64,000 nucleotides of DNA from Candidatus Sabulitectum sp. Lineage in GTDB: Bacteria; Fermentibacterota; Fermentibacteria; Fermentibacterales; JCC-6. Both the position numbers and the translations under genes were made by a program. The notes beneath the pieces are model-generated. The model saw only the letters and a list, made by a program, of their open reading frames with translations. It searched no databases and had not been told where the DNA came from. The stretch's first letter is position 1. Every line of letters begins with the position of its first letter. The stretch lies in the NCBI GenBank assembly GCA_023145375.1, contig JAGLDY010000012.1, positions 45,861 through 109,860 on the forward strand. The letters are read 5' to 3'. Below, in pieces: positions 7,037 to 54,317 of the stretch.

Positions 7037-7086
7037 TACCCGGCAAGGGTATACCTGAGAAGCTGTCACTGGCTGTCATCTGGTTG

Positions 7087-9690
7087 ATGGCCTTTGCGGT
7101 TCCTCTTGCGATCATTCCAGGAAGCTATAACTCTGCTCTGATCAAGCTTCTTGTTTTTACACTGGGCGCTGGTCTTCTGCTTCTTCTTCTCGGTTTGAAA
7201 ATGATCAGGGATCCTTTTCTTCCAGAGAATCTTCCCGTTATTCTTCTTCTTCTTATTCCGGCGGTTACTGCTCTTCATCTTTATGCACCGTCAAATCCCG
7301 GTGTTACCAGGATGCTTCTTGTCTCATCAGCAGTTGCTCTATTCATCTCAATAAGATCTTTCAGTATGGCGAGAAGGAAGATCCTTATCCCTTTGCTTAC
7401 CGGTGGTACTTTTGCAATCCTTGTGACACTTCTTATGCCTTCATCCACACAGAGACTTGCCGGTGTTTTCAGCAATGCGAATCTGCTTGGCAGTTTTACC
7501 GCAGGACTGCTTCCTGCTGGTTTTGCCTTTCTCTTTGGAAGGGGCTGGAAGCGGATCTCGCTGATTTTCCTTTTTACTGTGATCTGCGGTACTGCATTGT
7601 ATTTGAGTGGAACACGCAGCAGCGTAATAGCTCTGGCAGGTGGAGTAACTGCTGTCCTTTTCCTTCGCTGGAAACCCGAACTTCTTAAATTCTTTATTCT
7701 CCTCTTTCTTCTTGCGGTAGGTATTCTGGTGTTCCTTCCGCAGATTCCGGTACCTGAAATGGAAGGGACACCGGGAGTCAGGCAGGTAATATGGGAGGGG
7801 ACATCAGAAATGTTCCTGCAGAAACCGATCCTGGGATGGGGAAGTGGATCTTTTCAACTGCTTTTTCCTCGATTCAGGGCTTCTGATTTTCTGGAGAGAG
7901 GAGTGTCAACCAACACAGTGCATGCCCACAGTGAGCCTCTTGAGATACTGGCAGAAAATGGCCTCATTGGATTTATTCTCCTTTCTGCGTTGATGATAGT
8001 TTTGTTGAAGCAGGGAATGAACTGTAAAGAGAAAACCATTACAGAGTGGGGTGTGATCACGGCTGTTGCAGTTCTTCTGCTTGAAGGACTTACTTCTGTG
8101 GCTCTAAGGTGGACAACATCGGTTTACCTGCTTGCAATGCTGGCGTCTCTATTGCCTGCACGGCAGCCACCCATCATGAAAAAACTGCCCCGCTGGACAG
8201 CCATTCTACCTATTGCTGCAGGAATTCTTCTTCTTCTCCCTGGAGGATACAAAGCGTACAGAATGACTAGATCATCCATTCTCCTGAATTCAGCGATGAC
8301 GGCCCTGTCAACCGGTGAAGCAGATGAAACTGCGCGGGAGTTTTGTGTTGCATCGCTAAGGTACAATTCATGGGAACTGGGTAGCTGGTACACTCTGGGA
8401 AACATTTATGGACAGGAGGCTTCATCGGCTGCAGATGTTCAAACGGCTGTTGAGCTGCTTGAAAGCCAGCTAGACGCCTACGACTCTCTTGCAGTCAGAG
8501 CGGGAGATTTCGCGTGGATGCGTGTGAATAGGATTGACGCTTTCCTCAAGCTTGGTCAGTTCAACAGAGCCATGGATGATGTGATCTATATCTACAGACA
8601 CAGAAATGACCTGAAAGACTTCTGCTTAGAGATCGGTTACTCCATAACACCTCTGGTATCGCCGGGAAGAGCATTTGAGTTCATGAATCTAGTTTTTCTT
8701 GATGTTCTTGTGGATGAAGCAGAGATTGGCTGGAGAACCACTGGCCAGAGGGCAATACAGATGGAGTCCAGCATTCTAACAACATTTGCTCTTGCTGCTG
8801 TTCATGCCCCTGAAGCGGTGGACGGGATGAAGCAAACTGCGGATTCTATTCTTACCACCTGCAGTGATTCATTGAGAAACAGGTTGATGATCTCCATCGA
8901 AATGGAACTGCAGAAAGCCGAAAGTGGATATGACCTGCTTGAAAGGTATATCGCAGGCGACATGGAAGGACTGGAGGAGGAGTGTCTCGAGGTTTTGGAA
9001 GATGAGACGGTTTATGCAGCCTTTCACAGAGTTGTGTTGTGCCTTGCAGCACTGGAGAACCCCAATTCGGATTATGCGGAGATGTCTTATGAGAATTCAA
9101 TCGTTCTGGCACAAGCCTGTTATCCGCTGGTATCATGGTATCCGGGAGCAGGAGAGTTGTTTCTGGCAGCTGCAGTAAGATCAGGCGGGGATCATGTGCT
9201 GCAGTACTTCAAGTTTGCCTGTGAGATCGATTCCTACGGGATGTCGGTGATGAACTCATTCAGAAATTGCTACGTTAACCAGCCGCCCGTGGAAGCTCTT
9301 AAGTTCTGGTATGCTAATGGTGGTCCTCATGCTTCTATCACATTTGTTTCTCCCACGGGATTGCTTGTTCCTGATGGCGAGACCAGAAAATTACTTCAGC
9401 TGGCATCCGCGGAATCAACGGTTTTCCGGATCACGACTCACTTTATCCTAAGTAGTCTTGCAGCATCGTCATCAGGTGCAGATAGTGAATTCATTGTATC
9501 CACTGCAATTCTGAGACTTCTAAGCCAGCAGCAGGAACTTGCAGAGGTGTATGGAGAAGAAGAGGCTGAAAGGACAGTATCAGGAATTCTCAACAGGGAA
9601 ATTGAGTACCTCAAAAGTGGTCATTTCAGAGCTGAGACAGAAGTAACTGCCAGGCAGTTGAGATCAGCATTTCAGAGTGGGATCATTTGA
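7087..9690 (+). CDS. O-antigen ligase-like (Wzy_C) polytopic membrane protein fused to a large C-terminal TPR-like soluble domain
   Basis: About 10 TM helices, then the Wzy_C signature NTVHAHSEPLEILAENGLIGFILL, then about 450 aa of helical repeat region. Confidence 0.7.
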   Translation: MAFAVPLAIIPGSYNSALIKLLVFTLGAGLLLLLLGLKMIRDPFLPENLPVILLLLIPAVTALHLYAPSNPGVTRMLLVSSAVALFISIRSFSMARRKILIPLLTGGTFAILVTLLMPSSTQRLAGVFSNANLLGSFTAGLLPAGFAFLFGRGWKRISLIFLFTVICGTALYLSGTRSSVIALAGGVTAVLFLRWKPELLKFFILLFLLAVGILVFLPQIPVPEMEGTPGVRQVIWEGTSEMFLQKPILGWGSGSFQLLFPRFRASDFLERGVSTNTVHAHSEPLEILAENGLIGFILLSALMIVLLKQGMNCKEKTITEWGVITAVAVLLLEGLTSVALRWTTSVYLLAMLASLLPARQPPIMKKLPRWTAILPIAAGILLLLPGGYKAYRMTRSSILLNSAMTALSTGEADETAREFCVASLRYNSWELGSWYTLGNIYGQEASSAADVQTAVELLESQLDAYDSLAVRAGDFAWMRVNRIDAFLKLGQFNRAMDDVIYIYRHRNDLKDFCLEIGYSITPLVSPGRAFEFMNLVFLDVLVDEAEIGWRTTGQRAIQMESSILTTFALAAVHAPEAVDGMKQTADSILTTCSDSLRNRLMISIEMELQKAESGYDLLERYIAGDMEGLEEECLEVLEDETVYAAFHRVVLCLAALENPNSDYAEMSYENSIVLAQACYPLVSWYPGAGELFLAAAVRSGGDHVLQYFKFACEIDSYGMSVMNSFRNCYVNQPPVEALKFWYANGGPHASITFVSPTGLLVPDGETRKLLQLASAESTVFRITTHFILSSLAASSSGADSEFIVSTAILRLLSQQQELAEVYGEEEAERTVSGILNREIEYLKSGHFRAETEVTARQLRSAFQSGII

Positions 9691-12946: not shown

Positions 12947-14185
12947 ATGTCAAAGAAGAAACAGACCGTTGTTTTCGCAGAGGTTCTTTACGACGGCAGG
13001 AATAAACTGGAAAACTGTTCGGTTATCATTGAGGGTGACAAGGTAGTGGATGTTCTTCATAAGAAGATCCCTGCGGATTATTCAGGTTATGTAACACCGG
13101 CATTTATCGATGCCCACTCCCACATTGGAATGGACAGGGAAGGTGAGCCCTGGACAGAATCTGAAATGAATGATGTACTGAACCAGATACTGCCTGTTAA
13201 CGATCCGCTTAACAGCATCTACTTTGACGACAGGGCTTTCAAAGACGCGGTGGATTTCGGTGTTCTCTACAGCTGCGTTGTTCCAGGCAGCGGTAATCTC
13301 TTTGGCGGCAGGGCAAAGGTGATTCGCAACTTTGCAGCTAACAGAAAAACAGCAGAGCTGAAAGATTACGGATTCAAGATGGCTTTTGGCTTTAACCCAA
13401 GGTCCACAACCGACTGGAAAGGTGACAGACCCAATACCAGAATGGGTATTTACGCCCTTCTTGAACAGAAATTTGACGAGGTCATCAACAAGCGTAAAAA
13501 GGCATCTTTAAAGATGGAAAAGGAGCTGCACAAGCTTCAGTTAGATGCAGAAAAAGAGAAGTTCTCCTCTGATGAGATCAAGTTTCAAACATCATTGATC
13601 GAAAGGGAACACTCTCAAGCGTTCTCCCCGGCGGAGAATGCATTAATGGAACTGCTATCTGGTGAGAAAACAGCCAAAGTGCATGTACATAAGGAAGATG
13701 ATGTTCTCTACCTCATCGAATTTGCCCGGAAGTACGGCATCAAGGTAACAGCGGAACACACTGGCGATGTGTTCCATAAAGAGATTTTTGATGAACTGGG
13801 TGAAGCAGGTATTCCCATTGTTTACGGGCCACTGGGGTCAGTGGGATACAAGGTGGAGCTTAAACATGCCTACTATCAGAATGCAGGGCTTATTATGAAG
13901 TCCGGCGCATTTTACGGCCTCATGACTGACCACCCGGTTATCTGGACACCCTTCCTGAGAGAGAGCCTGAAATTCTTTCTTGTTCAGGGCATGTCACCAG
14001 AGGAAGCCATCTCAATGATCACATGGAAGAACGCAAAGATACTGGGTCTGGATGATATTCTTGGTACTGTTGAACAGGGCAAGACCGCAAGCCTCATAGT
14101 ATGGGATCAGGATCCCCTGAACCTTGCAGCTTTTCCGGGAATGGTCATGGGGGAAGGGAAAGTACTGAGGCAGAAGAACAAATAG
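12947..14185 (+). CDS. amidohydrolase-family metal-dependent hydrolase
   Basis: GGAGGTGA SD. FIDAHSHIGM metal-binding motif. About 412 aa. Confidence 0.7.
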   Translation: MSKKKQTVVFAEVLYDGRNKLENCSVIIEGDKVVDVLHKKIPADYSGYVTPAFIDAHSHIGMDREGEPWTESEMNDVLNQILPVNDPLNSIYFDDRAFKDAVDFGVLYSCVVPGSGNLFGGRAKVIRNFAANRKTAELKDYGFKMAFGFNPRSTTDWKGDRPNTRMGIYALLEQKFDEVINKRKKASLKMEKELHKLQLDAEKEKFSSDEIKFQTSLIEREHSQAFSPAENALMELLSGEKTAKVHVHKEDDVLYLIEFARKYGIKVTAEHTGDVFHKEIFDELGEAGIPIVYGPLGSVGYKVELKHAYYQNAGLIMKSGAFYGLMTDHPVIWTPFLRESLKFFLVQGMSPEEAISMITWKNAKILGLDDILGTVEQGKTASLIVWDQDPLNLAAFPGMVMGEGKVLRQKNK

Positions 14186-14188
14186 CAG

Positions 14189-15436
14189 TCAGACTGCAGG
14201 GTTCATCACCCTTCCCATGAAAACTATTGAGCCGGTTGCATTGTCCTGTATAAGGAAGAAAAATGGTCTGTTTATGTCCATCTCAACCGGGGATTCCGGG
14301 ATGCTGTGTAGACTCATGACAACTGCTGTTGCAGCGGCAGCTTCTGTACCTTCCTCATCTACTTTAACAAAGGCTTTGTGTACAACATCAGAAATGTATA
14401 GATCCCGGTTTCCTGTGATCCCGCTGAAGTCTGCATTATTTCCAAAAGCCGACCTCATTCCAAGAGAAGAAAGTATTTCACTGAGACCAATGCCTTTGGA
14501 GAATTCGAATCCGGGCATTGAAATGTGAATGTTCTGTGAGGAGAGGCTTTCCTTTATTGCTTCAAGCTCTGTAAGGTCGAAACTGCTTTCAAATTCACGC
14601 AAGTCACCATCTGGAAGAATAATCAACATGCTTGCACTGCCCCCGGCATAATCCATGGAAACAGCACTGTAACCTTCACCTGCTGCGTAGCTGAAGTGTT
14701 CCGTCTGCGTCATTACAGGTACATTCACAGTTGATCCATCAGCCAGAAAAAAATCCCCGTGGTAAGTTGCATATTCACTGAAGGGCTTGCTCCAGGAGGC
14801 CTTGAAGTAAACTGCGTTTGTCAGAACAAGACGAGTGTCTGCACCAAGTACTCCAGGTGGAATAAGATCAAGTATTCTTTCCATTGTACTTTCGGCGACC
14901 CGGGAATTGATCACTTCACGGGAACCTTCAGAGTTACCTGCGAAGTCGAGATTTTCTACTGATGCATTGTAAGATCCGGTAACCTCTGAAACAAAAGAGT
15001 CAAGCAGCGCATATCCATTCTGCACCCAGAGCCCATTGGAAATTGCCAGTTTGAAGGGTTCTACGGATTCTCTATGAGCAAGAGAACCGGAGGTCAGTGC
15101 TTCTGTTATTGATTGGAACAATCTACCGGTAACACTGTGAGGTGTACCAAAATGAAGTGTCTCTGCCATATCCAGCGCAGTTTCACCCTGTGCACCGGAG
15201 TAGGTCATGCCAAGTGCTGCGGAGATGCTATAGGGAGAGAAGAATACATTTTCAGTTTCTTCCACCGAACACAATTCCATGTACAGATCGAATGCGAACT
15301 CATTGTTCCCTTTTACAAAAGAAATGGCGGCCTCCGCATCAGTCAGTTGGGTTTCAGCACTCTTTTCAGCAAAGCACCCTGAAGGAATCACAAGAACGGC
15401 AGCAGCTGTTATCAGAAGTCCGGTAAGAATTTTCAT
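14189..15436 (-). CDS. serpin (serine protease inhibitor), lipoprotein-type signal
   Basis: AAGGAG SD upstream of the ATG at 15436. Signal/lipobox LITAAAVLVIPSGC. Serpin signatures FFSPYSISAALGMTYSGA and C-terminal NRPFFFLIQDNATGSIVFMGRVMNP. Confidence 0.85.
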   Translation of the reverse strand: MKILTGLLITAAAVLVIPSGCFAEKSAETQLTDAEAAISFVKGNNEFAFDLYMELCSVEETENVFFSPYSISAALGMTYSGAQGETALDMAETLHFGTPHSVTGRLFQSITEALTSGSLAHRESVEPFKLAISNGLWVQNGYALLDSFVSEVTGSYNASVENLDFAGNSEGSREVINSRVAESTMERILDLIPPGVLGADTRLVLTNAVYFKASWSKPFSEYATYHGDFFLADGSTVNVPVMTQTEHFSYAAGEGYSAVSMDYAGGSASMLIILPDGDLREFESSFDLTELEAIKESLSSQNIHISMPGFEFSKGIGLSEILSSLGMRSAFGNNADFSGITGNRDLYISDVVHKAFVKVDEEGTEAAAATAVVMSLHSIPESPVEMDINRPFFFLIQDNATGSIVFMGRVMNPAV

Positions 15437-15550
15437 AAGATTCTCCTTCGCAGAAAAATACAATAGATACTGCAAGATATTCCATTAAGTAGTCTTTGTC
15501 ACTGTCTTGTTCCTTTTTACGAATGGATCGAAAGAATCAGGGAGTTCTAC

Positions 15551-17328: not shown

Positions 17329-17943
17329 ATGGTTCCAAAATATGTATTTGTCGCAATATTCTTTGCCGTATCACTATTCGCCGGCTCAGCCTTTACGGAA
17401 GACGTTGAGCTCTGGGCGGAGATCGACCGGATAAATGGGATTTTTCAGAATGGAGACCAAATTGATTCTGATGCTATTGAGGAGTTGTTCCAGGAAACTG
17501 TCGGAGTAGCTCTTTCCATGGAACTGTCCCGCCAGTTCGAGGACCTTCGCAATGATGCTTTTGAGACAGATGACTTTACTGAATGTGACGGTTATGCGGA
17601 TAGAGCCGGCCCTGCTATAAATGTCTTCATAATGGGTGAATCGAATGCTATTGGGGTGAATACTGCGGTGTTTCTGGACCTGAGTATTCCCGAGTCGGAA
17701 GCATACACCTTCTTTCTGGTATGTGTAGGGGGATTCTATGTGGATGGAGAATCGCTGCGTAGTGGTACAGCAGAATTACCAGCATGGATGGAGCGATCCG
17801 GATCCAGCGCTCAAGCCGTTTATGATCCTGTCCAGGCAGAAGAATGGCTTGGCTACTGGGAGAGCATTCGTCTTTATCTGGATGGTGATTTTCTGTTTTT
17901 TGCAGACGAGACAATACTTGGAATTGATTTGGGTTCCGAGTAG
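17329..17943 (+). CDS. secreted hypothetical protein
   Basis: GGGGGAGG SD, then ATG at 17329. Signal peptide MVPKYVFVAIFFAVSLFAGSAFT. Confidence 0.5.
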   Translation: MVPKYVFVAIFFAVSLFAGSAFTEDVELWAEIDRINGIFQNGDQIDSDAIEELFQETVGVALSMELSRQFEDLRNDAFETDDFTECDGYADRAGPAINVFIMGESNAIGVNTAVFLDLSIPESEAYTFFLVCVGGFYVDGESLRSGTAELPAWMERSGSSAQAVYDPVQAEEWLGYWESIRLYLDGDFLFFADETILGIDLGSE

Positions 17944-45529: not shown

Positions 45530-46003
45530 TTGAGAATAGCTGTTCTTTCTGATACTCATATCCCGGCAAGGCTTCAAAACTTGCCGGGACTTGTTTATGA
45601 AGCCTGCGCCGGCACTGATCTTATCATTCATGCGGGGGATATTGAGGACAAGGATGTTATCAATGACCTTCTCAGGCTGGCACCTGTAAAAGCCGTTCGC
45701 GGTAACATGGATTATGAAAATTACCCTGAGGCACTCACCCTGCACTTCTTGGGTTTCACAATCGCAATTGCCCACGGAAGCGGTTCATACGAGAATGTAA
45801 GGCAGAGGATGAAGAAAAAGTTCCAGAGCATAAATCCTGATATTATCATCCACGGGCATACCCACATATTCCACTGGAAAAAAGAACGCAATGTCTGGTT
45901 CCTCTGCCCGGGAGCTGTATCCAACCCTGCAGGAAGCCGTTCAATGGCCATCCTGACACTGGAAAGGAAAAAAGCACCCCAGGTGGAGAAAATCGTATTC
46001 TGA
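45530..46003 (+). CDS. metallophosphoesterase, YfcE/MJ0936-like
   Basis: TTG start. Motifs MRIAVLSDTHIP, HAGDI and GHTH. 157 aa. Confidence 0.85.
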   Translation: MRIAVLSDTHIPARLQNLPGLVYEACAGTDLIIHAGDIEDKDVINDLLRLAPVKAVRGNMDYENYPEALTLHFLGFTIAIAHGSGSYENVRQRMKKKFQSINPDIIIHGHTHIFHWKKERNVWFLCPGAVSNPAGSRSMAILTLERKKAPQVEKIVF

Positions 46004-46053: not shown

Positions 46054-46129
<76 letters not shown>

Positions 46130-46327
46130 TTATCTGGCTTTACACAAAAGTTGGGGCTTCACAGACGTGAGCAATAGTTAGTATTCAATTTCGATTTGCC
46201 ATATGAATTTAGATCATAAGTGATGAATTCTTGTATCAAGGCCAGTTCTGCACATATTTACTTTCAACAGAATAGTATGTATTTTCAACTCTTATTGAAA
46301 GATCACATCACCTTCGTAGGGAGAGTT

Positions 46328-46678
46328 ATGTCAATAATCTATCTTCTAATCCTCAAAGTAATTTTAAGTCAGGTGTCAGCAGATATAGATACCGGAAGTA
46401 TATGTGGCACTGTGACTGATACTAGAGGAAACCCTCTAGTTGGAGCAACGGTTATGATTGTTGGAACTGCATACGGTGCCATGACAGATCCATTTGGTTT
46501 GTATGGAATAGAAAATCTGGCAGCAGGAAAGTATACAGTTGAAGCCAGAATGGTTGGAATGTTAGCGAATACTGTGGATGGAGTAGAGGTAGTTGCAGAT
46601 TGCATAACGACTCAGGGTTTCTCCCTAGCCACATATGGTTTATCAGCTGACGATATACCAGTATTAATCAAGATCTGA
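46328..46678 (+). CDS. small secreted protein with a carboxypeptidase-regulatory-like (CarbopepD_reg_2-like) domain
   Basis: GGGAGAG SD, then ATG at 46328. Signal peptide. ICGTVTDTRGNPLVGATVMIVGT...GKYTVEARMVG beta-sandwich signature. Confidence 0.55.
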   Translation: MSIIYLLILKVILSQVSADIDTGSICGTVTDTRGNPLVGATVMIVGTAYGAMTDPFGLYGIENLAAGKYTVEARMVGMLANTVDGVEVVADCITTQGFSLATYGLSADDIPVLIKI

Positions 46679-46679
46679 T

Positions 46680-48245
46680 ATGAGCAGACAATCACCTGCA
46701 CATTGCCTGAAAATTTTGACATTTATAACCCTGGTGTGCTTGTTTTTTCCTCTACAAGCCCATGGAGACACATCAAGTCTGACAGCAACACAAACAAACT
46801 GGGCAGGTGGATTACCACATTCCAGACCGTATGTTGCCTTGTGGTCGGATATGTTCGAATCATCATATGCAGTCGATTGGTCGGATACCCCAGGTTCTCT
46901 AACTATTGTAAGTGGATTTGAGAGGAAGATTATTTGGTACGGAGGAAGTTTATCAATAACGCACTTCACTCCCTTTGATGTTGATTCCGATGGTGATCTT
47001 GATATGTTTTTTCTGCAAAATACCGCCCAGGTTGGATGGTTGGAGAATTTCGATTGTGAACAGGGTTGGGTATTACATGAAATAGAGCACCCAATCTATC
47101 AGCCCAAAGCACTTGTTGCAAATGATTTTGATGGAAATGGATTCCCTGATCTAGCTGTAAGCTCAAGACAAGATGGACTCCTGATGCTTTATCAGGTGTC
47201 TGAAGACAGATGGGAAATCGAGCACATTGACAGGCTATTTTATAGCGGTTGGGATCTGGACACTGCAGACATTAACAAGGATGGAGTGGATGATCTGGTC
47301 GGTATTTCATGGGTACCGAATTACATCTGCTGGTGGGAAAACCCGGTCTCCATGCTTGAGAATTGGAATCCTCATATCATTGCTGACCTAGAGATTGCCA
47401 GAAACTCAATCTTGATCGATGACTTCGATGGAGATGGCCTGACTGAGGTATGTGCCTTTTCCCCAAGCAATACATGGGCTGGTGTAAATTTTTTTGTACA
47501 GGGTGATAGCTACAGAGAACCCTGGAAAGAATTACGGTTTGGTGATTGGACAGATGACGTCAACCATGTTGCTGTTCTGCAAAGATACGATGATGATAAC
47601 CAACATACTTTTAGCGGCTTGGCTATCGGTAAACAAGGGCACAATTCATCGGAATATGGATTCTTCATTCTTAATTCCGAATACGTACGTCAGCATACAC
47701 TTTCTCTTGGAAGAGAGTCTCCACAAACGGCTTTTATTCGTACGGGTGATATTGATGGGGATGCCGATATGGACATTTGCATAAATGCCCGCTGTTTTGA
47801 GAATGTTGAAGATAAATCCACCTGGATTCCGCACAACTATCTTGATAATGTTTCGACTAACATGCAAATTTCAAATCCAGTGTGTGTTGACCTTGATGGC
47901 AATGGGACCGACGAACTGGTTTATATAGAATCTGGTTCTATCTGGTTTGTTGATCATTCAATGCTTGTTTCCAGGGGTGAACTTACTTCACATTACTTTG
48001 AGCCCCAGGAGGTTCAGGAATGGAAACGCTTATCCTGGGAGTCAGAAGAACCCAGTGGTACTTCAGTATCAATGTTCTTCAGATACAACCGGCAATCTGA
48101 TTGGATAGGACCTTTCAGAGAATCCATAGATTTGACTGAGTATGAATCAGAGGGGATTAACCAGTTTCAGTACAGGGTGGTTCTTGAATCAGATTATCCA
48201 ACAGTATCACCCGTTCTTCATAGCATTACTGTGGAATGGGAGTAA
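46680..48245 (+). CDS. FG-GAP repeat (integrin-alpha-like beta-propeller) secreted protein
   Basis: Signal peptide. At least 6 FG-GAP Ca-binding loops (DVDSDGDLD, NDFDGNGFPD, DINKDGVDD, DDFDGDGLTE, GDIDGDADMD, VDLDGNGTDE). Confidence 0.75.
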   Translation: MSRQSPAHCLKILTFITLVCLFFPLQAHGDTSSLTATQTNWAGGLPHSRPYVALWSDMFESSYAVDWSDTPGSLTIVSGFERKIIWYGGSLSITHFTPFDVDSDGDLDMFFLQNTAQVGWLENFDCEQGWVLHEIEHPIYQPKALVANDFDGNGFPDLAVSSRQDGLLMLYQVSEDRWEIEHIDRLFYSGWDLDTADINKDGVDDLVGISWVPNYICWWENPVSMLENWNPHIIADLEIARNSILIDDFDGDGLTEVCAFSPSNTWAGVNFFVQGDSYREPWKELRFGDWTDDVNHVAVLQRYDDDNQHTFSGLAIGKQGHNSSEYGFFILNSEYVRQHTLSLGRESPQTAFIRTGDIDGDADMDICINARCFENVEDKSTWIPHNYLDNVSTNMQISNPVCVDLDGNGTDELVYIESGSIWFVDHSMLVSRGELTSHYFEPQEVQEWKRLSWESEEPSGTSVSMFFRYNRQSDWIGPFRESIDLTEYESEGINQFQYRVVLESDYPTVSPVLHSITVEWE

Positions 48246-49730
48246 CTATTGCTTTTCCAGTGTGAATGTTGCTATTTCTCTTCGCTCGTCGTCAGATAGA
48301 TTCACTTCGTACAATCTACCCTCGATAGAATCACTCAGAAGCGAGCAGTCTATCAATCTGGCAATAAGAAAATCAGATGTGTTTGCATGGTTCGAATAAC
48401 TGGGAATACTTGAGAAGTGCAGTAAAAGAGCAGTTGAGTCATCATCTGGATAATCGAACAATGCACTGTTGTGAATTCTGATATCATTGCCGTATGGGTT
48501 CGTTTCATATTCTATCTGAGTGTAAGTTACTCCATTGTATTCCAGGAGTGCTTGACCCGTTTTATTAAATGACAGAGATGAACCATCAATATCTATGGAA
48601 CTCAAAGTATCCGGTACAGTTTCTATCTTGTAACTCAATAAACAGTAGTCTATAGCGCATCCCGAGTAGAAAACAGGTTCGGAATCTCTCGACTCCACAT
48701 AGTATAAAGAGCCATTAAATTCTCCATTTTCCAATGCTTCTATTATTGTCATAAGAATGGGTTTCCTGGGCTCACTGCTAAGGTCGTCCAGTCTTAGAAG
48801 AGTATTGCGAGTCGAGGATCTGCCTCCAGAGGAAGTAAATACGGGAAACAGCATATCAAAGCTGTCGCTATCTCTCTGATAATATGGCCTTGATACAAAC
48901 CTCTGCCGTCCTGTAAGATAGAATTCTCTACCATCAGAAAGCAGATACGCGTCATCTGGAAGACCAATTGACCAGGGATCTGAATCATCAAGTTTTATTC
49001 TGAACGTGTAGACTGGGATTACACCAGACTCACAGTAACTGGTATATGATGCAATAGAGGAAAATGCAGGATATTTGGGCCATAGGTCGAAATAGTAAAC
49101 TCCATTGTTAAAGCTTCGAATCTCACCTGCTAGTGACAAATATAGATCTTCACCCTCTGAGCGATGCATTCCAAACTCTGTCAGATATGCCGAACCATTG
49201 TAGATAGTTCCAAAAACTCTTCTATCATCCCATCTGGTGAAATTGGTTTCTGTCACTCTGTCTGTACCGGAAGGAGAAACAGTAATCTCAATCTCTTCTG
49301 ATGATAGTGGAAAATGAACTGTAATTGCTGACTTGTGCTGATTGAACTCTGGAACTTTACCGGATGACAGAGATTGGAGATCCTCCACTGTAAGGATGTT
49401 TGGTGAGGACCTACCAACCATTGTAAAGAATCCATCTCCTGCCAGTCCATGTATTGATAGCTTACCTGAACTGTCTGCCAAGAATAAACCTTGCTGGTTC
49501 TCTTCCATTTCAATGGTGTACTCATGATAGAAAGTCAGTCTATCTCCAGGTTCAGATGCACCACTCCATACTCTAGATACCCTTACGGTGAGTGAATCAT
49601 ACTGATAGTCGACAAGCGTGCCTTCAATAACATGCTCATGCTGATGGTAATTCTCGTAATCAAAGCGTCCTGTTGGCGCCGTTATGACTGTCATGCCAAT
49701 AATGTATAGAAGTAACAGAATAATATGCAT
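48246..49730 (-). CDS. hypothetical secreted/membrane-anchored protein
   Basis: N-terminal hydrophobic segment MHIILLLLYIIGMTVITAPTG. No recognised domain. Its stop abuts the stop of the convergent FG-GAP gene. Confidence 0.45.
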   Translation of the reverse strand: MHIILLLLYIIGMTVITAPTGRFDYENYHQHEHVIEGTLVDYQYDSLTVRVSRVWSGASEPGDRLTFYHEYTIEMEENQQGLFLADSSGKLSIHGLAGDGFFTMVGRSSPNILTVEDLQSLSSGKVPEFNQHKSAITVHFPLSSEEIEITVSPSGTDRVTETNFTRWDDRRVFGTIYNGSAYLTEFGMHRSEGEDLYLSLAGEIRSFNNGVYYFDLWPKYPAFSSIASYTSYCESGVIPVYTFRIKLDDSDPWSIGLPDDAYLLSDGREFYLTGRQRFVSRPYYQRDSDSFDMLFPVFTSSGGRSSTRNTLLRLDDLSSEPRKPILMTIIEALENGEFNGSLYYVESRDSEPVFYSGCAIDYCLLSYKIETVPDTLSSIDIDGSSLSFNKTGQALLEYNGVTYTQIEYETNPYGNDIRIHNSALFDYPDDDSTALLLHFSSIPSYSNHANTSDFLIARLIDCSLLSDSIEGRLYEVNLSDDERREIATFTLEKQ

Positions 49731-50184
49731 AGTGAACGAATCATTATAAATTCTATTGTCTTGGTCAATGGATTGCTTTCTGTACAGTTCAACCGTTTCT
49801 TTTCCTACTTGCAACCCGAGAATGTCGCTGCAGATTTACAGGTCTGAATGCTGAGTACATTCGAGAGTAAATATGTTCATTCACCATCGGTTCAAATCAC
49901 TACTGAGGAGAATAAACGATATTTGTGGCTGCCATGGAAAGCGTGATAGTAGGGCTGATTTGCACGTGTTAATTAGAAAACCTGAGCTGAACTGCTTGGC
50001 GATTCCAATCCAGAAAAGGGTTCCAACTAAGAAACATTAGGGATACCGGCATTCAATCTGAATAATGACAATCCAACATGAGATAATAGAATAGGCTCTA
50101 CACCCAAAGTGCTTCCATTCCCTCGCCCCATAGAAAATACCTCAATAAGGGAATTCATATGGAGGTAGTCTGCTCCCAATTCTC

Positions 50185-50279
50185 ATGCTGCACCGTCAAA
50201 TCGTAGCTCATTGAGTTTTGTGATCCAGGAGATGAAAAGTTTCCAACTGGCAATCAGGTGGGATACCATAATTTAATCT
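50185..50279 (+). repeat. direct repeat copy 1 (about 95 bp), upstream flank of the two-gene cassette
   Basis: About 80% identical to 52715..52807 in the same orientation. Shared core TCATTGAG(T/C)TTTGTGA(T/G)CCAGG...GTTTCCAACTGGCAATCA...GGGATACCA. Confidence 0.7.
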
Positions 50280-50623
50280 TAACAAGGCTCTACACCATTA
50301 ACGGGGCAGTCCAAATCCACCTTAGTTATTGAGATTCCTCACCAAGTACTTAATCTTGTTATCTGACTTTGATATCTCTCAAGAAATACTATCGAAATAG
50401 GCATTGCATTTCCCATTACATAAAGCATTACAAATATTAAAATAGAAACCATTATTGATTCTATTGCTATTTGTATTGCAAATACTGTTATCTATTTTGA
50501 GAATGGATACCGTTATAACATTATGTTACTAAGTCACATAATTAAGATAATGTTTGCATCTTGTTCAGGGATATGCTATGTTCAGCAATGATGAACAGGC
50601 GTAAATATTGAACAAAGGATGGA

Positions 50624-51652
50624 TTGGCCATGGAAGGTATTCAGCGGGAACGGGAAAAGGAAACTCTGCAGGCAGCTCTTCTGAAGCTGCGCGAGGAGAT
50701 ACCAATAGGGGACTATACAGTGAAATGGGAAGTGCCCACAGGCAAGGGTACTGTATTTGATGCTGTGGTGAACTTCCAGAAAATTCTTCACGAGTACGCC
50801 GTGGAAATCAAAATGAACCTTAACCCCAAAATGCTGGACGCCATGGAATTCTACCTGAAAGAGGTAGGTAGAACGGTGATCCTCATAACTGATGCCATAA
50901 CAGACACAACCGCGACAGAACTCAGACAGAGGAATATCCAGTATATCGATACTCTGGGAAACATGTACCTCGCCCAGGAAGATCCCTTTGTTATTGTCCA
51001 CAAAACTGGCAGCAAACCACAGGGAACCACAAAAGAGAAACCGGCGAATGCATTCGCAGGCACAAGGCTCAAGGTGATATTTACTCTGCTTACAATCGAA
51101 GATGCGGTTAACCTTACCTACAGGGAAGTTGCCAATCTGGCCGGGGTAGCACTTGGTACCGTAGGATGGACATTCAGAGATCTGAAACTGCTGGGCTACA
51201 TCAGAGTGTACAAGCACAAGCGGAAAATCATGAACCGCGACAAACTGGTAAACCGGTGGCTGGAGGCATACCCTACCGAGATGCGTCCGAAACTCAATCC
51301 CAAACGCTTTACCGCTCCTGATAAAAATTGGTGGATTCAAGTAGATCTCAACCGCTATGGAGTGCTACTTGGTGGAGAAACAGCAGCAGCAGTGCTTACA
51401 AAACACCTTCACCCAGAGTATGGAGTGCTTTACACCCATGGTGATATTCACGAACTGGCAAGGGCGCTGAAGTTAAGAGCAGACCCGCTGGGGAACCTCA
51501 CTCTAATGGATCGATTCTGGAAGGGAGAAGCCCTTCAAATAAACAGAACTCCCATGGCTCCTCCCATCCTTATCTGTGCTGAACTCCTTGCAGAGGGTGG
51601 GGAGAGGAATATGGAAGCTGTGAAGATGATCCGGGAGAACTTTAATGTATAG
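50624..51652 (+). CDS. wHTH protein with an N-terminal PD-(D/E)xK-like motif. Candidate AbiEi-like antitoxin/regulator.
   Basis: FDAVVNF...EYAVEIK (D...ExK) in the first 100 aa. wHTH LTYREVANLAGVALGTVGWTFRDLKLLGYIRV in the middle. Overlaps the next gene by 8 nt. Confidence 0.45.
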   Translation: MAMEGIQREREKETLQAALLKLREEIPIGDYTVKWEVPTGKGTVFDAVVNFQKILHEYAVEIKMNLNPKMLDAMEFYLKEVGRTVILITDAITDTTATELRQRNIQYIDTLGNMYLAQEDPFVIVHKTGSKPQGTTKEKPANAFAGTRLKVIFTLLTIEDAVNLTYREVANLAGVALGTVGWTFRDLKLLGYIRVYKHKRKIMNRDKLVNRWLEAYPTEMRPKLNPKRFTAPDKNWWIQVDLNRYGVLLGGETAAAVLTKHLHPEYGVLYTHGDIHELARALKLRADPLGNLTLMDRFWKGEALQINRTPMAPPILICAELLAEGGERNMEAVKMIRENFNV

Positions 51653-52496
51653 AGTAACCGTTGATGATGATAAAAAGACTGTCCTTTCTGCCATTGATAT
51701 CGTTGCCGCGGAATTTGCAATATCCTGGTTTCTCTGCGGAGCATATTCCAGAGTACTTCTATGTGAAGAAGTTTTCAAAACTCCAATCGGACGAGCGACG
51801 TACGATCTTGATATTGCAATCTGTGTAAAATCTCTGGATGAGTATACCTGTTTCCGTGAAAGTCTATGCGAGAAGTATATGTTTATGCCAGATAGCAAGA
51901 AAGAGCAGAGACTCATTCACCGCATGAGCGGCATACCAGTTGATATAATTCCTTTCGGGAAATTCTCAGAACCGGATGAATTGTACAGATGGGGTCCAGA
52001 TGATGCTTTTGAGATGAATGTACTGGGTTTTGATGATGCCTCTCTCTCCTCAATCAGCTTCCTTGTAAATAGCGAACTTGAAATAAAAATAGCTGGTTAT
52101 GCAGAACAGTTCGTGCTTAAATTGTTTGCATGGAAAGACAGGCGATCTATAAGGGGTATTGATGATGCCGGAGATCTGGCATACTTTCTTATCCACGCCT
52201 TGAAGTCAGTTTCAGAAATGCATCTTTTCGGCAAGTACTATTCTGTTCTGGAAGAGGCAGGGTACGATGACGAACTTGCTTCCTGCTGCATTTTAGGTAA
52301 GCAGATAAGATCCGTTTTTTCAATGAAAACCGTTGATAAGACAATCGAAATTCTTGAGGATGAGTTTAATGCCGGTGATGATTCTGCTCTGATGTCCGAT
52401 ATGTACAGTAGATTCAGTTCCTGGCCCCGACCTGATGAACGTATTGCAATTGTCATCGATCAACTTCTTAAAGGTCTTTTAGCGGACGATCATTAG
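51645..52496 (+). CDS. minimal polymerase-beta-type nucleotidyltransferase, AbiEii/AbiGii-toxin-like
   Basis: NTase signature hG[GA]S CGAYSRVLL, then RATYDLDIAI (DxD), then the third acidic residue in PVDIIPF. 283 aa. Confidence 0.55.
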   Translation: MYRVTVDDDKKTVLSAIDIVAAEFAISWFLCGAYSRVLLCEEVFKTPIGRATYDLDIAICVKSLDEYTCFRESLCEKYMFMPDSKKEQRLIHRMSGIPVDIIPFGKFSEPDELYRWGPDDAFEMNVLGFDDASLSSISFLVNSELEIKIAGYAEQFVLKLFAWKDRRSIRGIDDAGDLAYFLIHALKSVSEMHLFGKYYSVLEEAGYDDELASCCILGKQIRSVFSMKTVDKTIEILEDEFNAGDDSALMSDMYSRFSSWPRPDERIAIVIDQLLKGLLADDH

Positions 52497-52714
52497 AATG
52501 TTCTACTAAAGAATGGCCGTGACACACAGCATGTAGAAGATTATTGAGATTTCTCCTCTTTTAATTTGTACTCATAGTGTTGAGGGTTTCGCCCGGTATT
52601 CATCCGGAAGAGTACATCATCAATTCCTGTTCCGTTAAGATTCTATTCCTTTACGGTACGTAAAGTCTATTGGTGAAGTTAGAGATAGAACACCCTCGAG
52701 AGCACTGTAATGTT

Positions 52715-52807
52715 ATGCTGCGCTGTGAAATAGCGACTCATTGAGCTTTGTGAGCCAGGGCATGAAATGTTTCCAACTGGCAATCAATTGGGATACCAGT
52801 TTAAATC
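52715..52807 (+). repeat. direct repeat copy 2 (about 93 bp), downstream flank of the cassette
   Basis: See copy 1. Lies about 220 nt after the cassette stop and about 175 nt before the LVIVD gene. Confidence 0.7.
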
Positions 52808-52982
52808 GATCCCTTCAATCTAATGGTTTCAGTTAGTGTCTACTCTACCGTGGCAGGATCAGTAATATTCCGGGGAGAGCAGAATATATATAGCATGAGT
52901 GTCTCTTATTTCCCTAATGCAAAAGGTGTATATTGAAGCACTGGTTTGAGTCGGAATATTCTCAACCAACGAGGGGATTGCT

Positions 52983-54317
52983 ATGAGTCCTGTGGGAGTT
53001 CTTCTTGTCGCTATTGCGATGTATTCGCCGCAGGTCTTTACAGATTCAGCTCTGCAGATAGGTATTCCAGGCGATACTTCGCACCACTGCTTCCCTGAAA
53101 CTCCGGATCGGCGGGGCGGGTCCATTTTATCCCGGGATGAGAATGATTCCTTGAATGTTAGTTTTGTGGGAAACTGGCCGTTTGGTCCTTCATGCTGTGT
53201 CTCTGTTGACTCCACTCAAAGCATTGCATTTCTCAGCTCAGGCGGAGGGGTTTACATCCTTGATATTTCTGACCCTGCTTCCCCTGCTGAGATGTCTGGA
53301 TGCATTTATACAAGAGGCAGAGTGATGGATCTCTTTTACCAGGAATCCGCCGGTAGACTCTATGCAGCAGTAGATGAGAACGGCATTGAGGTCTGGGACG
53401 TTCAGGACCTTGACAACCCATACAGACTTGGAAGTTGTGATACACCTGACAGGGCATGGGGGATAGTTGTATCCGGTGATCATGCCTATGTAGCTGATGG
53501 GGATTCCGGCCTCCGTGTAATTGATGTGACCACTCCATCAGCCCCTGTTGAAGTTGGCTGTTATGATTCGCCGGGGTATGTCCGAAGCCTGGTTATATCA
53601 GGTAACTACGCCTACCTGGCTGATGATTCAGCACTTCTTGTGATTGATATTTCCGTACCGTCCAATCCAACACAGGTGGGGTATTGCAACAGCGATTGCG
53701 AGTACGGCATTGCCATAGATAACAATTTCATTTACGCCACGGGTTATTCAGATGGCTTGTACGTTATTGATGTGTCCACACCTTCTGAGCCAGTGGAGGT
53801 CGGCTCCTACATTTCTTTTTCATTGTTGGGTCTGGAAGTCTCTGACGGCTATGCATACATTTCAAATGCAAACATTGGTTTTCTTGTTCTTGACATATCC
53901 TCACCTGCTGCTCCAATGGAAGTGGGGTACTGCAACACCCCTGGTACCGCTCTTCAGGTAGCTGTATCGGGAAACTACACTTATGTCGCAGATGGCGCTA
54001 CAGGTCTGCAGATTTACCAGTTCATACCAATGTCAATAGAGAAAGAAGAAGGGGTTGAGCAAGAGTCCAGCCTCTTTGATATTGTCTCGAATCCGTCCAG
54101 AGGCTCAGTCTCTTTCAGGATAGAATTATCATGTAATTCTCAGTTAGATATGACTGTCTACGATATCTGTGGCCGTGAGGTTCAGCTGCCGGCAAGCGGG
54201 AATTATCCTCCGGGACAGCACGAGATCATCCTGAACGACTTATCACCGGGAGTGTATTTTGCTAGAGTTGATACCGAAACATCCACCGAGACAAAGAAAT
54301 TTGTGCTGATCAGGTAG
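52983..54317 (+). CDS. LVIVD-repeat beta-propeller protein with a T9SS C-terminal sorting domain
   Basis: GAGGGG SD. Repeated xLxVIDISxPSxPxxVGxY units (YILDISDPASPAEM, LRVIDVTTPSAPVEVGCY, LLVIDISVPSNPTQVGYC, LYVIDVSTPSEPVEVGSY, LVLDISSPAAPMEVGYC). CTD MTVYDICGREV...GVYFARV. Confidence 0.75.
   Translation: MSPVGVLLVAIAMYSPQVFTDSALQIGIPGDTSHHCFPETPDRRGGSILSRDENDSLNVSFVGNWPFGPSCCVSVDSTQSIAFLSSGGGVYILDISDPASPAEMSGCIYTRGRVMDLFYQESAGRLYAAVDENGIEVWDVQDLDNPYRLGSCDTPDRAWGIVVSGDHAYVADGDSGLRVIDVTTPSAPVEVGCYDSPGYVRSLVISGNYAYLADDSALLVIDISVPSNPTQVGYCNSDCEYGIAIDNNFIYATGYSDGLYVIDVSTPSEPVEVGSYISFSLLGLEVSDGYAYISNANIGFLVLDISSPAAPMEVGYCNTPGTALQVAVSGNYTYVADGATGLQIYQFIPMSIEKEEGVEQESSLFDIVSNPSRGSVSFRIELSCNSQLDMTVYDICGREVQLPASGNYPPGQHEIILNDLSPGVYFARVDTETSTETKKFVLIR

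Follow-up and report, generated by a model that had tools for sequence, protein, structure and literature searches.

An AbiE-type gene pair, probably lying in a tRNA-Arg-anchored array of small modules, in Candidatus Sabulitectum

Organization of the gene pair

The window analysed in this work is a stretch of 64,000 nt from contig JAGLDY010000012.1 of Candidatus Sabulitectum sp., a member of the Fermentibacterota. It carries two adjacent genes on the forward strand, enclosed by a pair of direct repeats. Gene 1 (50630-51652) encodes a protein of 340 aa if translation begins at the ATG at 50630, or of 342 aa from the TTG at 50624, and gene 2 (51645-52496) encodes a protein of 283 aa. The two ORFs overlap by 8 nt, as a preliminary description of this DNA, made from its sequence alone, had reported. 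The AT-rich character of the site was also seen in our analysis, the GC content being 0.335 at 50200-50599, upstream of gene 1, versus 0.42-0.50 nearby.

A promoter-like match was found at 50515-50542 and its putative -10 element, CATAAT, is located at 50537-50542. It is followed by a putative operator, so that the two elements together occupy 50537-50614 on the forward strand. This candidate site is a nested dyad centred on 50588, made up of the hexamers TGTTCA (50562-50567 and 50579-50584) and TGAACA (50592-50597 and 50609-50614). Across seven cassettes with protein identities of 62-93%, these four hexamers hardly vary while the DNA around them diverges. In five of the seven the hexamers are identical, and the exceptions are locus L055, with TGTACA for both TGAACA copies, and locus L043, with CGAACA for the third hexamer.

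Gene 1 is an AbiEi_2 protein

Gene 1 belongs to the standard AbiEi_2 proteins of Pfam (COG4861 type) and matches PF09952 with an E-value of 7e-28. It consists of three parts, which are a restriction endonuclease (REase)-like N-domain (about residues 1-130), a winged helix-turn-helix (wHTH; about 148-202) and the AbiEi_2 C-domain (205-340). Its structure was predicted with confidence, and the alpha-beta-beta-beta-alpha-beta fold of restriction endonucleases, which the preliminary description had proposed to look for, is present in the N-domain. That description also named a PD-(D/E)xK-like motif. The candidate nuclease residues are D46, E61 and K63, and the catalytic D...(D/E)xK pattern is not conserved: E61 was found in 21 of 42 homologs and K63 in 22 of 42, and both are absent from close Sabulitectum relatives. 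Since these two residues are kept in only about half of the homologs and are lost even in close relatives, catalysis is not a family property of the N-domain.

Each of the 60 homologs of gene 1 found at E <= 0.001 matched PF09952. About 50 of them are 334-362 aa in length, and the query coverage ranges from 60 to 99%. The plasmid-borne homologs that span 98-99% of the protein are named 'AbiEi family antitoxin' by PGAP and lie beside an 'AbiEii/AbiGii toxin'. The COG4861-COG4849 gene pair was described as early as 2014 (Dy et al. 2014, PMC3985639). Because the pairing has been described before and is routinely annotated, gene 1 is not the undescribed variant with an atypical domain order that had been suggested as a possibility. 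Neither does its suggested likeness to Rv2827c hold, as Rv2827c belongs to another antitoxin family (COG5340, in which a wHTH at the N-terminus is joined to a CTD), and this family has no nuclease-like domain.

Gene 2 is a diverged DUF1814 nucleotidyltransferase

Gene 2 gave no Pfam match at E <= 1 and was not matched by the AbiE models of PADLOC; the NCBIfam and PADLOC scans returned nothing meaningful. Searches of the PDB by sequence, using both proteins and a profile of gene 2, gave no significant match. Of the 26 aligned family members, 11 matched PF08843 (best E-value 6.7e-10), homologs at 33% identity carry this domain, and the PF08843-bearing homologs connect to gene 2 with E-values of 1e-23 to 1e-33. 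The AlphaFold model of gene 2 (pLDDT 91, pTM 0.90) was compared with the PDB by Foldseek, and the best match was MenT1 (8an4/8an5; E-value 2e-4, probability 1.0); further best matches were a CCA-adding enzyme and JHP933. The model thus has the pol-beta nucleotidyltransferase fold of the DUF1814 superfamily.

The AbiE nucleotidyltransferase (NTase) motifs have been defined as I (hG[GS]), II (DxD and a third acidic residue), III (KLxAaxxR) and IV (DxxD) (PMC3985639). All four are found in gene 2, including a motif III of the COG4849 type, as G32-A33, R50-x-T52-x-D54-x-D56 with D100, K159 in LKLFAWKDR, and D174-D-x-x-D177 (DDAGD). Conservation was scored on the alignment of 26 sequences, in which the motif residues are invariant or nearly so; G32, R36, R50, T52, D54, D56, D100, K159, D174 and D177 are invariant. 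The catalytic triad as first proposed is correct in its DxD (D54 and D56) and D100, but the first motif is G32-A33 and not GS. The invariant T52 lies two residues before D54 of the DxD, and T52/D54 corresponds to T39/D41 of MenT1, a COG4849 member, and to T65/D67 of AbiEii. A Ser or Thr is kept at this phosphoacceptor site in COG2253 and COG4849.

We concluded that gene 2 is a diverged DUF1814 nucleotidyltransferase (COG4849/MenT1-like), an assignment that is transitive and structural, with no direct Pfam or PADLOC AbiE match. The earlier placement of gene 2 in the AbiEii/DUF1814 superfamily is thus supported by the homologs, by MenT1 as the closest structure and by the four motifs.

The direct repeats

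The left repeat, R_L, extends from 50173 to 50268 and the right repeat, R_R, from 52703 to 52798, both on the forward strand; the extents obtained with a profile were about 50173-50273 and 52702-52802. Positions 50185-50268 and 52715-52798 run in the same orientation and share 83% identity over 84 nt, which verifies the repeat pair noticed before. Because the similarity ends at GGGATACCA (50260-50268 and 52790-52798), which we call the core, the right ends given in the preliminary description, 50279 and 52807, lie about 10 nt too far. A third, more diverged copy had been overlooked: it lies at 49952-50053, has the core GGGATACC at 50040-50047 and was detected by the profile with an E-value of 2e-18. 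The 18-mer GTTTCCAACTGGCAATCA occurs only twice in the 64 kb, once in each repeat; if up to 3 mismatches are allowed, its chance expectation is 0.08, and two matches were obtained in 0 of 100 shuffles.

Ten loci were fetched, of which L052 duplicates L051. At least 17 copies are present in the 9 distinct related loci, every one in the orientation of the tRNA gene described below. Over 97 nt, R_L shares 88.7% identity with the repeat of L040, behind which different genes are located. In L063, a locus of 64% GC from a high-GC phylum, three R-like copies lie between modules. The direct-repeat families of the L047 island differ from R.

No Rfam match was obtained at the repeats, either at the gathering threshold on the whole window or in E-value mode on 49800-53000. 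The repeats form no hairpin: on either strand, the z-scores of DNA folding lie between -0.39 and +0.64. The fold of their alignment has 2 pairs and no covariation; hence the attC and structured-RNA readings were rejected. If the repeat is a decayed copy of the whole tRNA, the copy is possibly an ancient one, as the repeat profile did not match the tRNA and the resemblance is limited to the last 9 nt together with a T-loop-like GGTTCCAAC. Scanning metagenomes with the 18-mer core gave 36 loci, each of which was a chance match of 18-25 nt. No match was obtained in the viral contigs with the repeat pattern, in the phage collection with the gene 1 protein or in the plasmid DNA search with the whole cassette.

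An array of modules behind tRNA-Arg(CCG)

A tRNA-Arg(CCG) gene, identified by ARAGORN and Rfam, is located 4 kb upstream at 46054-46129 on the forward strand. The 9 nt at its end, GGGATACCA (46121-46129), form the core that recurs in each repeat, and we regard the gene as the anchor of an array (attB/attL side). Core synteny with relatives stops at its 3' end. The tRNA is 100% identical in L001, L002, L003, L040 and L041. In L043 the tRNA and its repeat both have the variant GGGGTACCAAATTTCAGAA and are identical over 19 nt; in most genomes the core shared by tRNA and repeat is only 9 nt.

Module 1 (46130-50053, forward strand) contains genes for a CarboxypepD_reg protein (46220-46678), an FG-GAP protein (46680-48245) and, on the minus strand, a 522-aa protein (48246-49814), as assigned with Pfam, and is closed by the diverged repeat copy. 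In L049 and L053 the same three genes sit behind another module and repeat. A cargo-less mini-module follows on the forward strand (50054-50268), in which a start-of-module motif, GGCTCTACACCC (50094-50105), is followed by R_L. The start-of-module motif of the AbiE module, GGCTCTACACCATTAACGGGGCAGTCCAAATCC (50286-50318, forward strand), is a putative P' arm, and its minus-strand frame is that of the ORF in the repeats. This motif is found again at module starts, 15-50 nt past the core, in L049, L051 (twice), L053, L040 and L003. In this genome, the tRNA is followed by the surface-protein module, one R copy, the empty module, R_L, the AbiE module and finally R_R.

In the related loci, the repeats likewise divide modules of 1-4 kb behind tRNA-Arg, with AbiE, MNT/HEPN, Fic, Cu-ATPase and surface-protein genes. 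Among the relatives, the slots taken by the AbiE, MNT and surface-protein modules vary, and every junction falls at the core. In L001 and L003 the AbiE module directly follows the tRNA, and here it follows R_L; the MNT module lies behind the tRNA in L049 and behind a repeat in L040. Relatives with the same left-flank module have other cargo in place of AbiE. Against the array reading stands the finding of the same AbiE cassette free of repeats in L045, L047 and L055, as well as the shortness of the core; moreover, an empty site whose flanks are identical on either side was not recovered. The coding DNA of the cassette is 89-93% identical to that of L003, versus 72-79% for the adjacent core genome. 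A recent transfer is nevertheless not firmly shown, because the non-coding parts (3' spacer 75.5%, repeat 81%) are no closer to L003 than the core genome is.

The repeat arm resembles an integrase tail

R_L contains a minus-strand frame of 28 codons (50186-50269, MVSHLIASWKLFISWITKLNELRFDGAA*), which we read as a remnant of an integrase C-terminal tail; the equivalent minus-strand frames are at 52716-52814 in R_R and at 49972-50052 in the diverged copy. In 14 copies this frame is open, versus 6-32 stops in the other frames, and its BLOSUM similarity is the highest. A peptide profile made from the three copies of the window was searched against 1.8e9 proteins and matched the C-terminus of a tyrosine-recombinase fragment, P0115, with an E-value of 1.2e-4. 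The match is short (24 residues) and is to a truncated gene on a 937-bp contig from another phylum. In its N-terminal part, P0115 shares 52% identity (E-value 2e-19) with the catalytic-Tyr region of an intact Phage_integrase of 426 aa, and the 3' end of that integrase itself overlaps a tRNA-Met gene in a provirus. The top three matches of the profile were spurious: P0112 is a translated eukaryotic tandem repeat, and P0113 and P0114 were judged so only from their length and multiple matched stretches. The frame comparison and the database search are more informative for this ORF than the codon-position test.

Because the minus-strand tail matches the C-terminus of an integrase fragment, we interpret the repeats as attR-type scars of tandem integration, each made up of an integrase-tail arm and the core. 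In the free element, a tyrosine-integrase gene would span attP, and the arm (P arm) would be what is left of that gene's 3' tail. Each junction would consist of an arm of about 90 nt and then the 9-bp core, whose sequence is that of the tRNA end. Small, integrase-less modules would be added to the array by site-specific recombination at the tRNA-Arg(CCG) 3' end.

Alternatively, the repeat might be a minus-strand gene for a small protein of 26-33 aa, or a locally duplicated regulatory or intergenic repeat, the array having been formed by ordinary homologous recombination and not by site-specific integration. Such a gene would agree with the ATG, CTG, TTG or GTG that begins the open frame in most copies, with the conserved amphipathic W-x-x-F-x-x-W pattern, with the calling of such ORFs by gene callers (P0116-P0119) and with the lack of a local integrase. 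We nevertheless consider this explanation improbable. The repeat ends exactly with the terminal 9 nt of the tRNA and covaries with the tRNA variant in L043, and modules abut the tRNA and the repeats at exactly the same nucleotide. Moreover, the frame extends upstream of the core in P0115 and L051, in P0115 into the catalytic region of the recombinase, and the ORF has no third-codon-position excess (0.21/0.13/0.18) that would be a signature of current selection. The missing excess also counts against the integrase-tail reading.

None of the 34 window ORFs scanned with Pfam encodes an integrase or transposase, as had been noted before, and tblastn with a related integrase found none either. As no integrase was detected either in this window or in the other Sabulitectum loci inspected, mobility at the present day can only be inferred, and the array could be a fossil.

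Predicted function of the gene pair

Taking the two genes and their surroundings together, the most probable interpretation is that they form a known type of bicistronic AbiE-family toxin-antitoxin (TA) or abortive-infection module, of the COG4861-COG4849 subtype, and that the repeats are attR-type junctions of an array at tRNA-Arg. The preliminary description had already suggested an AbiE-type TA or abortive-infection module, and the PF09952 match of gene 1 and the nucleotidyltransferase superfamily of gene 2 agree with it. By analogy with characterised MenT and AbiEii toxins, gene 2 most likely acts on tRNAs by adding nucleotides to their 3'-CCA ends, which would lead to translation arrest. 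Gene 1, the upstream gene of the operon, encodes a wHTH protein of the AbiEi family; it most likely represses the operon through the conserved dyad, a putative site just upstream of its start codon. It would most likely also neutralise the toxin by inducing auto-phosphorylation of the invariant Thr52, judging from MenA1/MenT1, MenA3/MenT3 and AbiEi/AbiEii.

The pair shares with the described AbiE/MenAT systems of this subtype (Dy et al. 2014, PMC3985639; MenT1, PMC10435456, PMC11375011) the overlapping bicistronic operon, the order, in which a regulator containing a wHTH lies upstream of a pol-beta nucleotidyltransferase of the DUF1814 superfamily, motifs I-IV with the COG4849-type KLxAaxxR, and the Thr two residues before the DxD. 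MenT1 is the best structural match of gene 2, and an inverted-repeat operator, here putative, lies at the promoter. The differences are that gene 2 is too diverged for a direct PF08843 or PADLOC AbiE match and has GA rather than G[GS] in motif I, and that gene 1 is a three-domain AbiEi_2 protein with an extra REase-like N-domain, in contrast to the studied COG5340 AbiEi/MenA3 and the small MenA1. The AbiE/MenAT literature cited here contains no experimentally characterised COG4861-type antitoxin.

We also considered whether the two genes might be a stable, vertically inherited regulator and nucleotidyltransferase with a housekeeping role, neither TA nor defence. The failure of gene 2 to match the Pfam and PADLOC AbiE models would suit this explanation, the subfamily has had no experiment so far, and benign nucleotidyltransferases such as CCA-adding enzymes share the MenT-like fold. 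However, the presence of the pair is patchy, its genomic context is different in every relative, and it is found alongside other TA modules in variable islands. In addition, the gene order, the overlap, the four toxin motifs and the phosphoacceptor Thr are those of characterised AbiE/MenAT systems, and a housekeeping role is therefore very improbable.

Relation to known island and cassette systems

The AbiE-family TA module with array junctions that we favour resembles several known systems in its setting. The ssrA-GIs of Dehalococcoides (PMC3146451) and cis-mobilizable elements (CIMEs) formed by accretion (PMC5704250) are likewise serial islands downstream of one small-RNA gene. They share the closing direct repeat of the 3' end of the RNA gene, an extra conserved sequence beside the repeat with no match to the RNA gene, many units without an integration module, and an integrase gene whose 3' end overlaps the attachment site. 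The units here, in contrast, are very small (0.2-4 kb, often one operon) and none was seen with an integrase; the core is 9 nt with a conserved arm of about 90 nt that would encode the integrase tail; a tyrosine recombinase is implied rather than a serine recombinase; and the host belongs to the Fermentibacterota, a parallel array being present in L063, from a high-GC phylum. The tycheposons and tRNA-proximal islands of Prochlorococcus (bioRxiv 10.1101/2020.12.28.424599) also involve tRNA-targeting tyrosine-integrase elements with cargo, the outward push of older elements by repeated integration, and a scatter of partial attachment repeats and degraded remnants. Tycheposons are, however, 10-20 kb in size with integrase and replication modules, whereas only cargo and attachment-site remnants are found here, and the repeat here would be an integrase-tail arm and not a partial tRNA.

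Integron cassettes and CALINs are similar in being arrays of small cassettes, often TA, in one orientation at a fixed primary site, with a recombination-site-like repeat at one end of each. The small, TA-rich modules, often single operons, each followed by a similar repeat of about 100 nt, might accordingly be read as a CALIN whose repeats are attC sites. This is extremely unlikely, as the repeats lack the attC hairpin, there is no intI (IntI) or attI and no Phage_integrase in the 34 window ORFs scanned or the annotated relatives, the modules bring along their own promoters, their genes lie on both strands, and the junction core, which marks the primary site, is the tRNA 3' end with an arm that probably derives from a phage-type tyrosine-integrase tail. 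Nor is there any appreciable chance that the cassette is a self-contained mobile unit with the repeats as its own target-site duplication or terminal scars, as first proposed: two repeats do enclose both genes directly and the homology of the L003 cassette stops 7 nt past the R_R core, but this reading is already contradicted by the comparative data, as the repeats measure about 100 nt and their identity is only 83%, terminal inverted repeats and a transposase are absent, the same repeat family borders unrelated modules in 9 distinct loci, the left border of the cassette in L001 and L003 is the tRNA and not a repeat, and L045, L047 and L055 have the same AbiE cassette without any repeats. The repeats are thus not private to the gene pair. 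Of the two origins offered for them, recombination scars still fits, while target-site duplication does not, since they are common to a multi-cassette array at tRNA-Arg.

Implications

The TA pair alone adds little, being a diverged but regular member of AbiE/MenAT, although its subtype with a COG4861 antitoxin is missed by a current defence-finder model set (PADLOC). The TA family is known; the array is a new variant of tandem tRNA-island accretion. Recombinase-less single-operon cassettes stack behind one tRNA gene, and at the junctions the tail of an integrase gene would be retained. More is learned from the context than from the pair, as it bears on how modules are stored and exchanged in the poorly known Fermentibacterota, and the conserved junction sequence offers a simple marker for such arrays in metagenomes.

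It is conceivable, though we think it rather unlikely, that the tRNA-Arg locus of Sabulitectum and the similar locus of a high-GC phylum are a working integron-like gene-capture platform without attC hairpins. A minimal cassette would then consist of a short P' stub, one cargo operon, the arm of about 90 nt and the 9-bp core, and a tyrosine integrase acting in trans would insert, shuffle and excise cassettes at the tRNA 3' end. The C-terminal tail of the integrase, being encoded across attP, would change upon integration. If cassettes are still mobilised in trans, an integron-like capture would have arisen from a phage-type integrase and a tRNA site, and bacteria without classical integrons would have a cassette system for defence and surface-protein genes.

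Repeats and gene layout in the window

The stretches 50185-50268 and 52715-52798 share 83% identity across 84 nt in the same orientation, and a repeat profile widens these left and right copies, R_L and R_R, to about 50173-50273 and 52702-52802, respectively. Their likeness ends exactly at the 9-nt core GGGATACCA (50260-50268 and 52790-52798), and the conserved 3' portion of the repeat reads GAAA(A/C)GGGTTCCAAC..AAT.AT..GGGATACCA. The 18-mer GTTTCCAACTGGCAATCA occurs twice in the window, both times in the repeats; two matches, with 3 mismatches permitted, were found in 0 of 100 shuffles. The repeats bracket two ORFs, gene 1 (50624/50630-51652) and gene 2 (51645-52496), which overlap by 8 nt. 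The preliminary description of a repeat-bracketed two-gene cassette was accurate in its layout, and its interpretation is supported in part.

A third, diverged repeat copy, overlooked in that description, lies at 49952-50053. Many modules start with a second motif, GGCTCTACACCATTAACGGGGCAGTCCAAATCC, 15-50 nt past the core; in the window this motif is at 50286-50318. The 215 bp from 50054 to 50268 form a cargo-less unit consisting of the beginning of the motif GGCTCTACACCATTAACGGGGCAGTCCAAATCC and R_L. The 119-bp spacer between the two repeat copies (50054-50172) is gene-free and has the start-of-module motif GGCTCTACACCC; therefore, it is apparently an empty cassette. Elsewhere in the window, this bacterial genome encodes a full-length serpin (14189-15475, minus strand; Pfam Serpin, E 4e-113).

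The cassette encodes an AbiE toxin-antitoxin pair of a known kind

The start codon of gene 1 is likely the ATG at 50630, giving a protein of 340 aa; this length agrees with the closer homologs, and AAGGA sits 9 nt upstream. Pfam assigns AbiEi_2 (PF09952) to residues 201-339 (E 7e-28) and a wHTH model to residues about 155-209. The high-confidence structure model (pLDDT 90, pTM 0.86) has three domains, namely an N-terminal alpha-beta-beta-beta-alpha-beta domain (residues 1-130), a wHTH (148-202) and the AbiEi_2 C-domain (205-340). The domain order of gene 1 had been called atypical, which does not hold: PF09952 is present in 60 of 60 homologs (E <= 0.001), and plasmid homologs in which 98-99% of gene 1 is covered are labelled AbiEi-family antitoxins by PGAP and adjoin an AbiEii/AbiGii toxin. 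About 50 of the 60 homologs are 334-362 aa long (full span 258-397 aa), with query coverage of 60-99%. Opposite gene 1, the minus strand is open for 252 codons (50582-51340); nothing supports this frame, and the codon composition of gene 1 most likely accounts for it.

The product of gene 2 is identical to the NCBI protein KAH54_02340, and the window derives from a Candidatus Sabulitectum MAG (Fermentibacterota). The window protein itself has no match in Pfam; PF08843 is carried by its homologs (29-33% identity), and 11 of the 26 aligned members match it. The invariant residues of the alignment (G32, A33, R36, R50, T52, D54, D56, R89, D100, K159, D174 and D177) make up motifs I-IV of Dy et al. 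(2014, PMC3985639), among them KLxAaxxR, described there as typical of COG4849, the NTase group partnering COG4861 regulators. The nearest solved structure to the gene 2 model (pLDDT 91, pTM 0.90) is MenT1 (E 2e-4, prob 1.0), which belongs to COG4849 (PMC10435456, PMC11375011). Dy et al. 2014 had already described such a COG4861-COG4849 pair, and the module is an ordinary member of this known kind.

The activity of MenT toxins and AbiEii is nucleotide addition to the 3'-CCA ends of tRNAs, and gene 2 by analogy probably shares it. The antitoxins silence these toxins by inducing auto-phosphorylation at a Ser/Thr two residues ahead of DxD, a position strictly conserved in COG2253 and COG4849; its counterpart in gene 2 is the invariant T52 within R50-A-T52-Y-D54-L-D56. 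Upstream of gene 1, a nested dyad centred at 50588 is formed by TGTTCA (50562 and 50579) and TGAACA (50592 and 50609). Seven cassettes carry it almost unchanged, with single-base changes in L055 and L043, while their proteins are only 62-93% identical and the adjoining DNA has diverged. The dyad is likely an operator for autorepression, a mode of control shown for AbiEi acting on inverted repeats (PMC3985639). The array stands on the 3'-CCA end of a tRNA gene (46121-46129), the part of tRNAs that the toxin family of gene 2 modifies; this is probably a coincidence.

An array of modules behind tRNA-Arg in relatives

In the window, tRNA-Arg (46054-46129) follows a Metallophos_2 gene (45530-46003). 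In three relatives (L001, L002 and L003) the AbiE cassette lies directly 3' of tRNA-Arg(CCG), which terminates in GGGGATACCA, and the cassette proteins are 84-93% identical; L003 has one repeat copy past the cassette. The upstream synteny of the window is that of these relatives, but 4 kb of other genes separate the tRNA from R_L. In another locus, L043, the tRNA ends in GGGGGTACCAAATTTCAGAA and the repeat closes with the identical 19 nt.

The profile detected at least 17 repeat copies, every one in the orientation of the tRNA, at 9 distinct loci (10 were fetched, of which L052 duplicates L051). The copies part modules of 0.2-4 kb, whose cargo comprises AbiE, MNT with or without HEPN (L040, L049), Fic plus HTH (L051), Cu-ATPase plus DUF302 (L050), DUF3307 (L040), and FG-GAP and T9SS surface proteins. 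The slots of the modules differ from genome to genome: AbiE is behind the tRNA in L001 and L003 and behind R_L in the window; MNT is behind the tRNA in L049 and behind a repeat in L040; and the CarboxypepD_reg/FG-GAP/500-aa module is behind the tRNA in the window and behind another module in L049 and L053. Relatives having the left-flank module of the window carry other cargo in place of AbiE.

A contig of another Sabulitectum MAG stops exactly at the tRNA-Arg 3' end (L041:10537-10612), consistent with the assembly having broken in a variable or repeated stretch. In a more distant relative (L054:2887-2971 and 7007-7484), a surface-protein module and a repeat adjoin hydrogenase genes, with a BrnT/BrnA pair near; since the 14.6 kb retrieved contain no tRNA-Arg, either the array may have been relocated or the tRNA may be further off.

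The coding DNA of the cassette is 89-93% identical to that of L003, and the adjacent core genes are 72-79% identical. The 3' spacer, at 75.5%, and the repeat, at 81%, show no greater similarity to L003 than the core does, and the evidence for recent horizontal transfer is therefore moderate. Cassettes without these repeats adjoin an IS4 transposase and Fic (L055) or lie in other TA-rich islands (L045 and L047). The L047 island (L047:1-21023; JAIOSV010000103.1, another Sabulitectum MAG) is rich in TA and defence genes (RhuM, PDDEXK_2, HipA/HipB-like, an AbiEii fragment and MNT/HepT) and has its own direct repeats of 66-300 nt (398-697 vs 9303-9602, 86%), unrelated to R_L and R_R.

Origin of the repeat

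The possibility that the repeat is an attC site was rejected, because folding gave no hairpin and Rfam no matching family. On the minus strand, each good copy stays open for 26-33 codons in one frame, which runs from the core complement to the left edge of the repeat. This frame has 0 stops in fourteen copies (6-32 in the other five frames) and the highest BLOSUM score among diverged copies (2.18 units per site vs 0.34-1.63), with no third-position excess. A profile of the three window repeat peptides, searched against 1.84 billion proteins, matched a tyrosine-recombinase fragment, P0115 (E 1.2e-4; ...LGHASIQMTVDTYGHLIPGAN...EKKVVSLMFASWNQFVDWLRRLDTLR). A 426-aa Pfam Phage_integrase encoded by a provirus (L058) aligns over its catalytic-Tyr box (residues 338-403) with the first 65 residues of P0115 at 52% identity (E 2e-19), and the 3' end of this integrase gene overlaps tRNA-Met. 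The repeat is therefore most plausibly interpreted as the attP P arm: it would encode the C-terminal tail of the integrase in the free element and, upon integration, remain at the distal (attR) end. An integrase catalytic region was found neither in the window nor in any Sabulitectum locus examined. In the IMG/VR provirus, tRNA-Met lies between two tyrosine-integrase-like ORFs of 426 and 401 aa (L058:4990-7598), the first of which terminates within the tRNA-Met complement (...GGGGRTRTYDLRIMRPSL*).

The array type in a second phylum and among known islands

In L063, from another phylum (64% GC), the same integrase-tail peptide (e.g. RMVSQIFASWNPLMNWLRQVERLRHAA) parts PadR+MacB/FtsX modules and a Gp49/HTH (HigB-like) TA pair. 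Its three copies (L063:10136-10216, 13605-13685 and 17634-17702), with the core GGCTCACCA in place of GGGATACCA, indicate that arrays of this type also occur outside Sabulitectum.

The closest likeness of the array is to the ssrA tandem islands of Dehalococcoides, which include integrase-less units and in which the integrase 3' end overlaps the attachment site (PMC3146451). It also resembles CIME accretion (PMC5704250) and the tRNA islands of Prochlorococcus (bioRxiv 10.1101/2020.12.28.424599). What distinguishes it from these systems are its tiny, frequently one-operon cassettes, the lack of an integrase in every unit seen, the short core with a long coding arm, and a parallel array in a second phylum. 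The repeat context of the AbiE cassette is tandem tRNA-island accretion in a new form.
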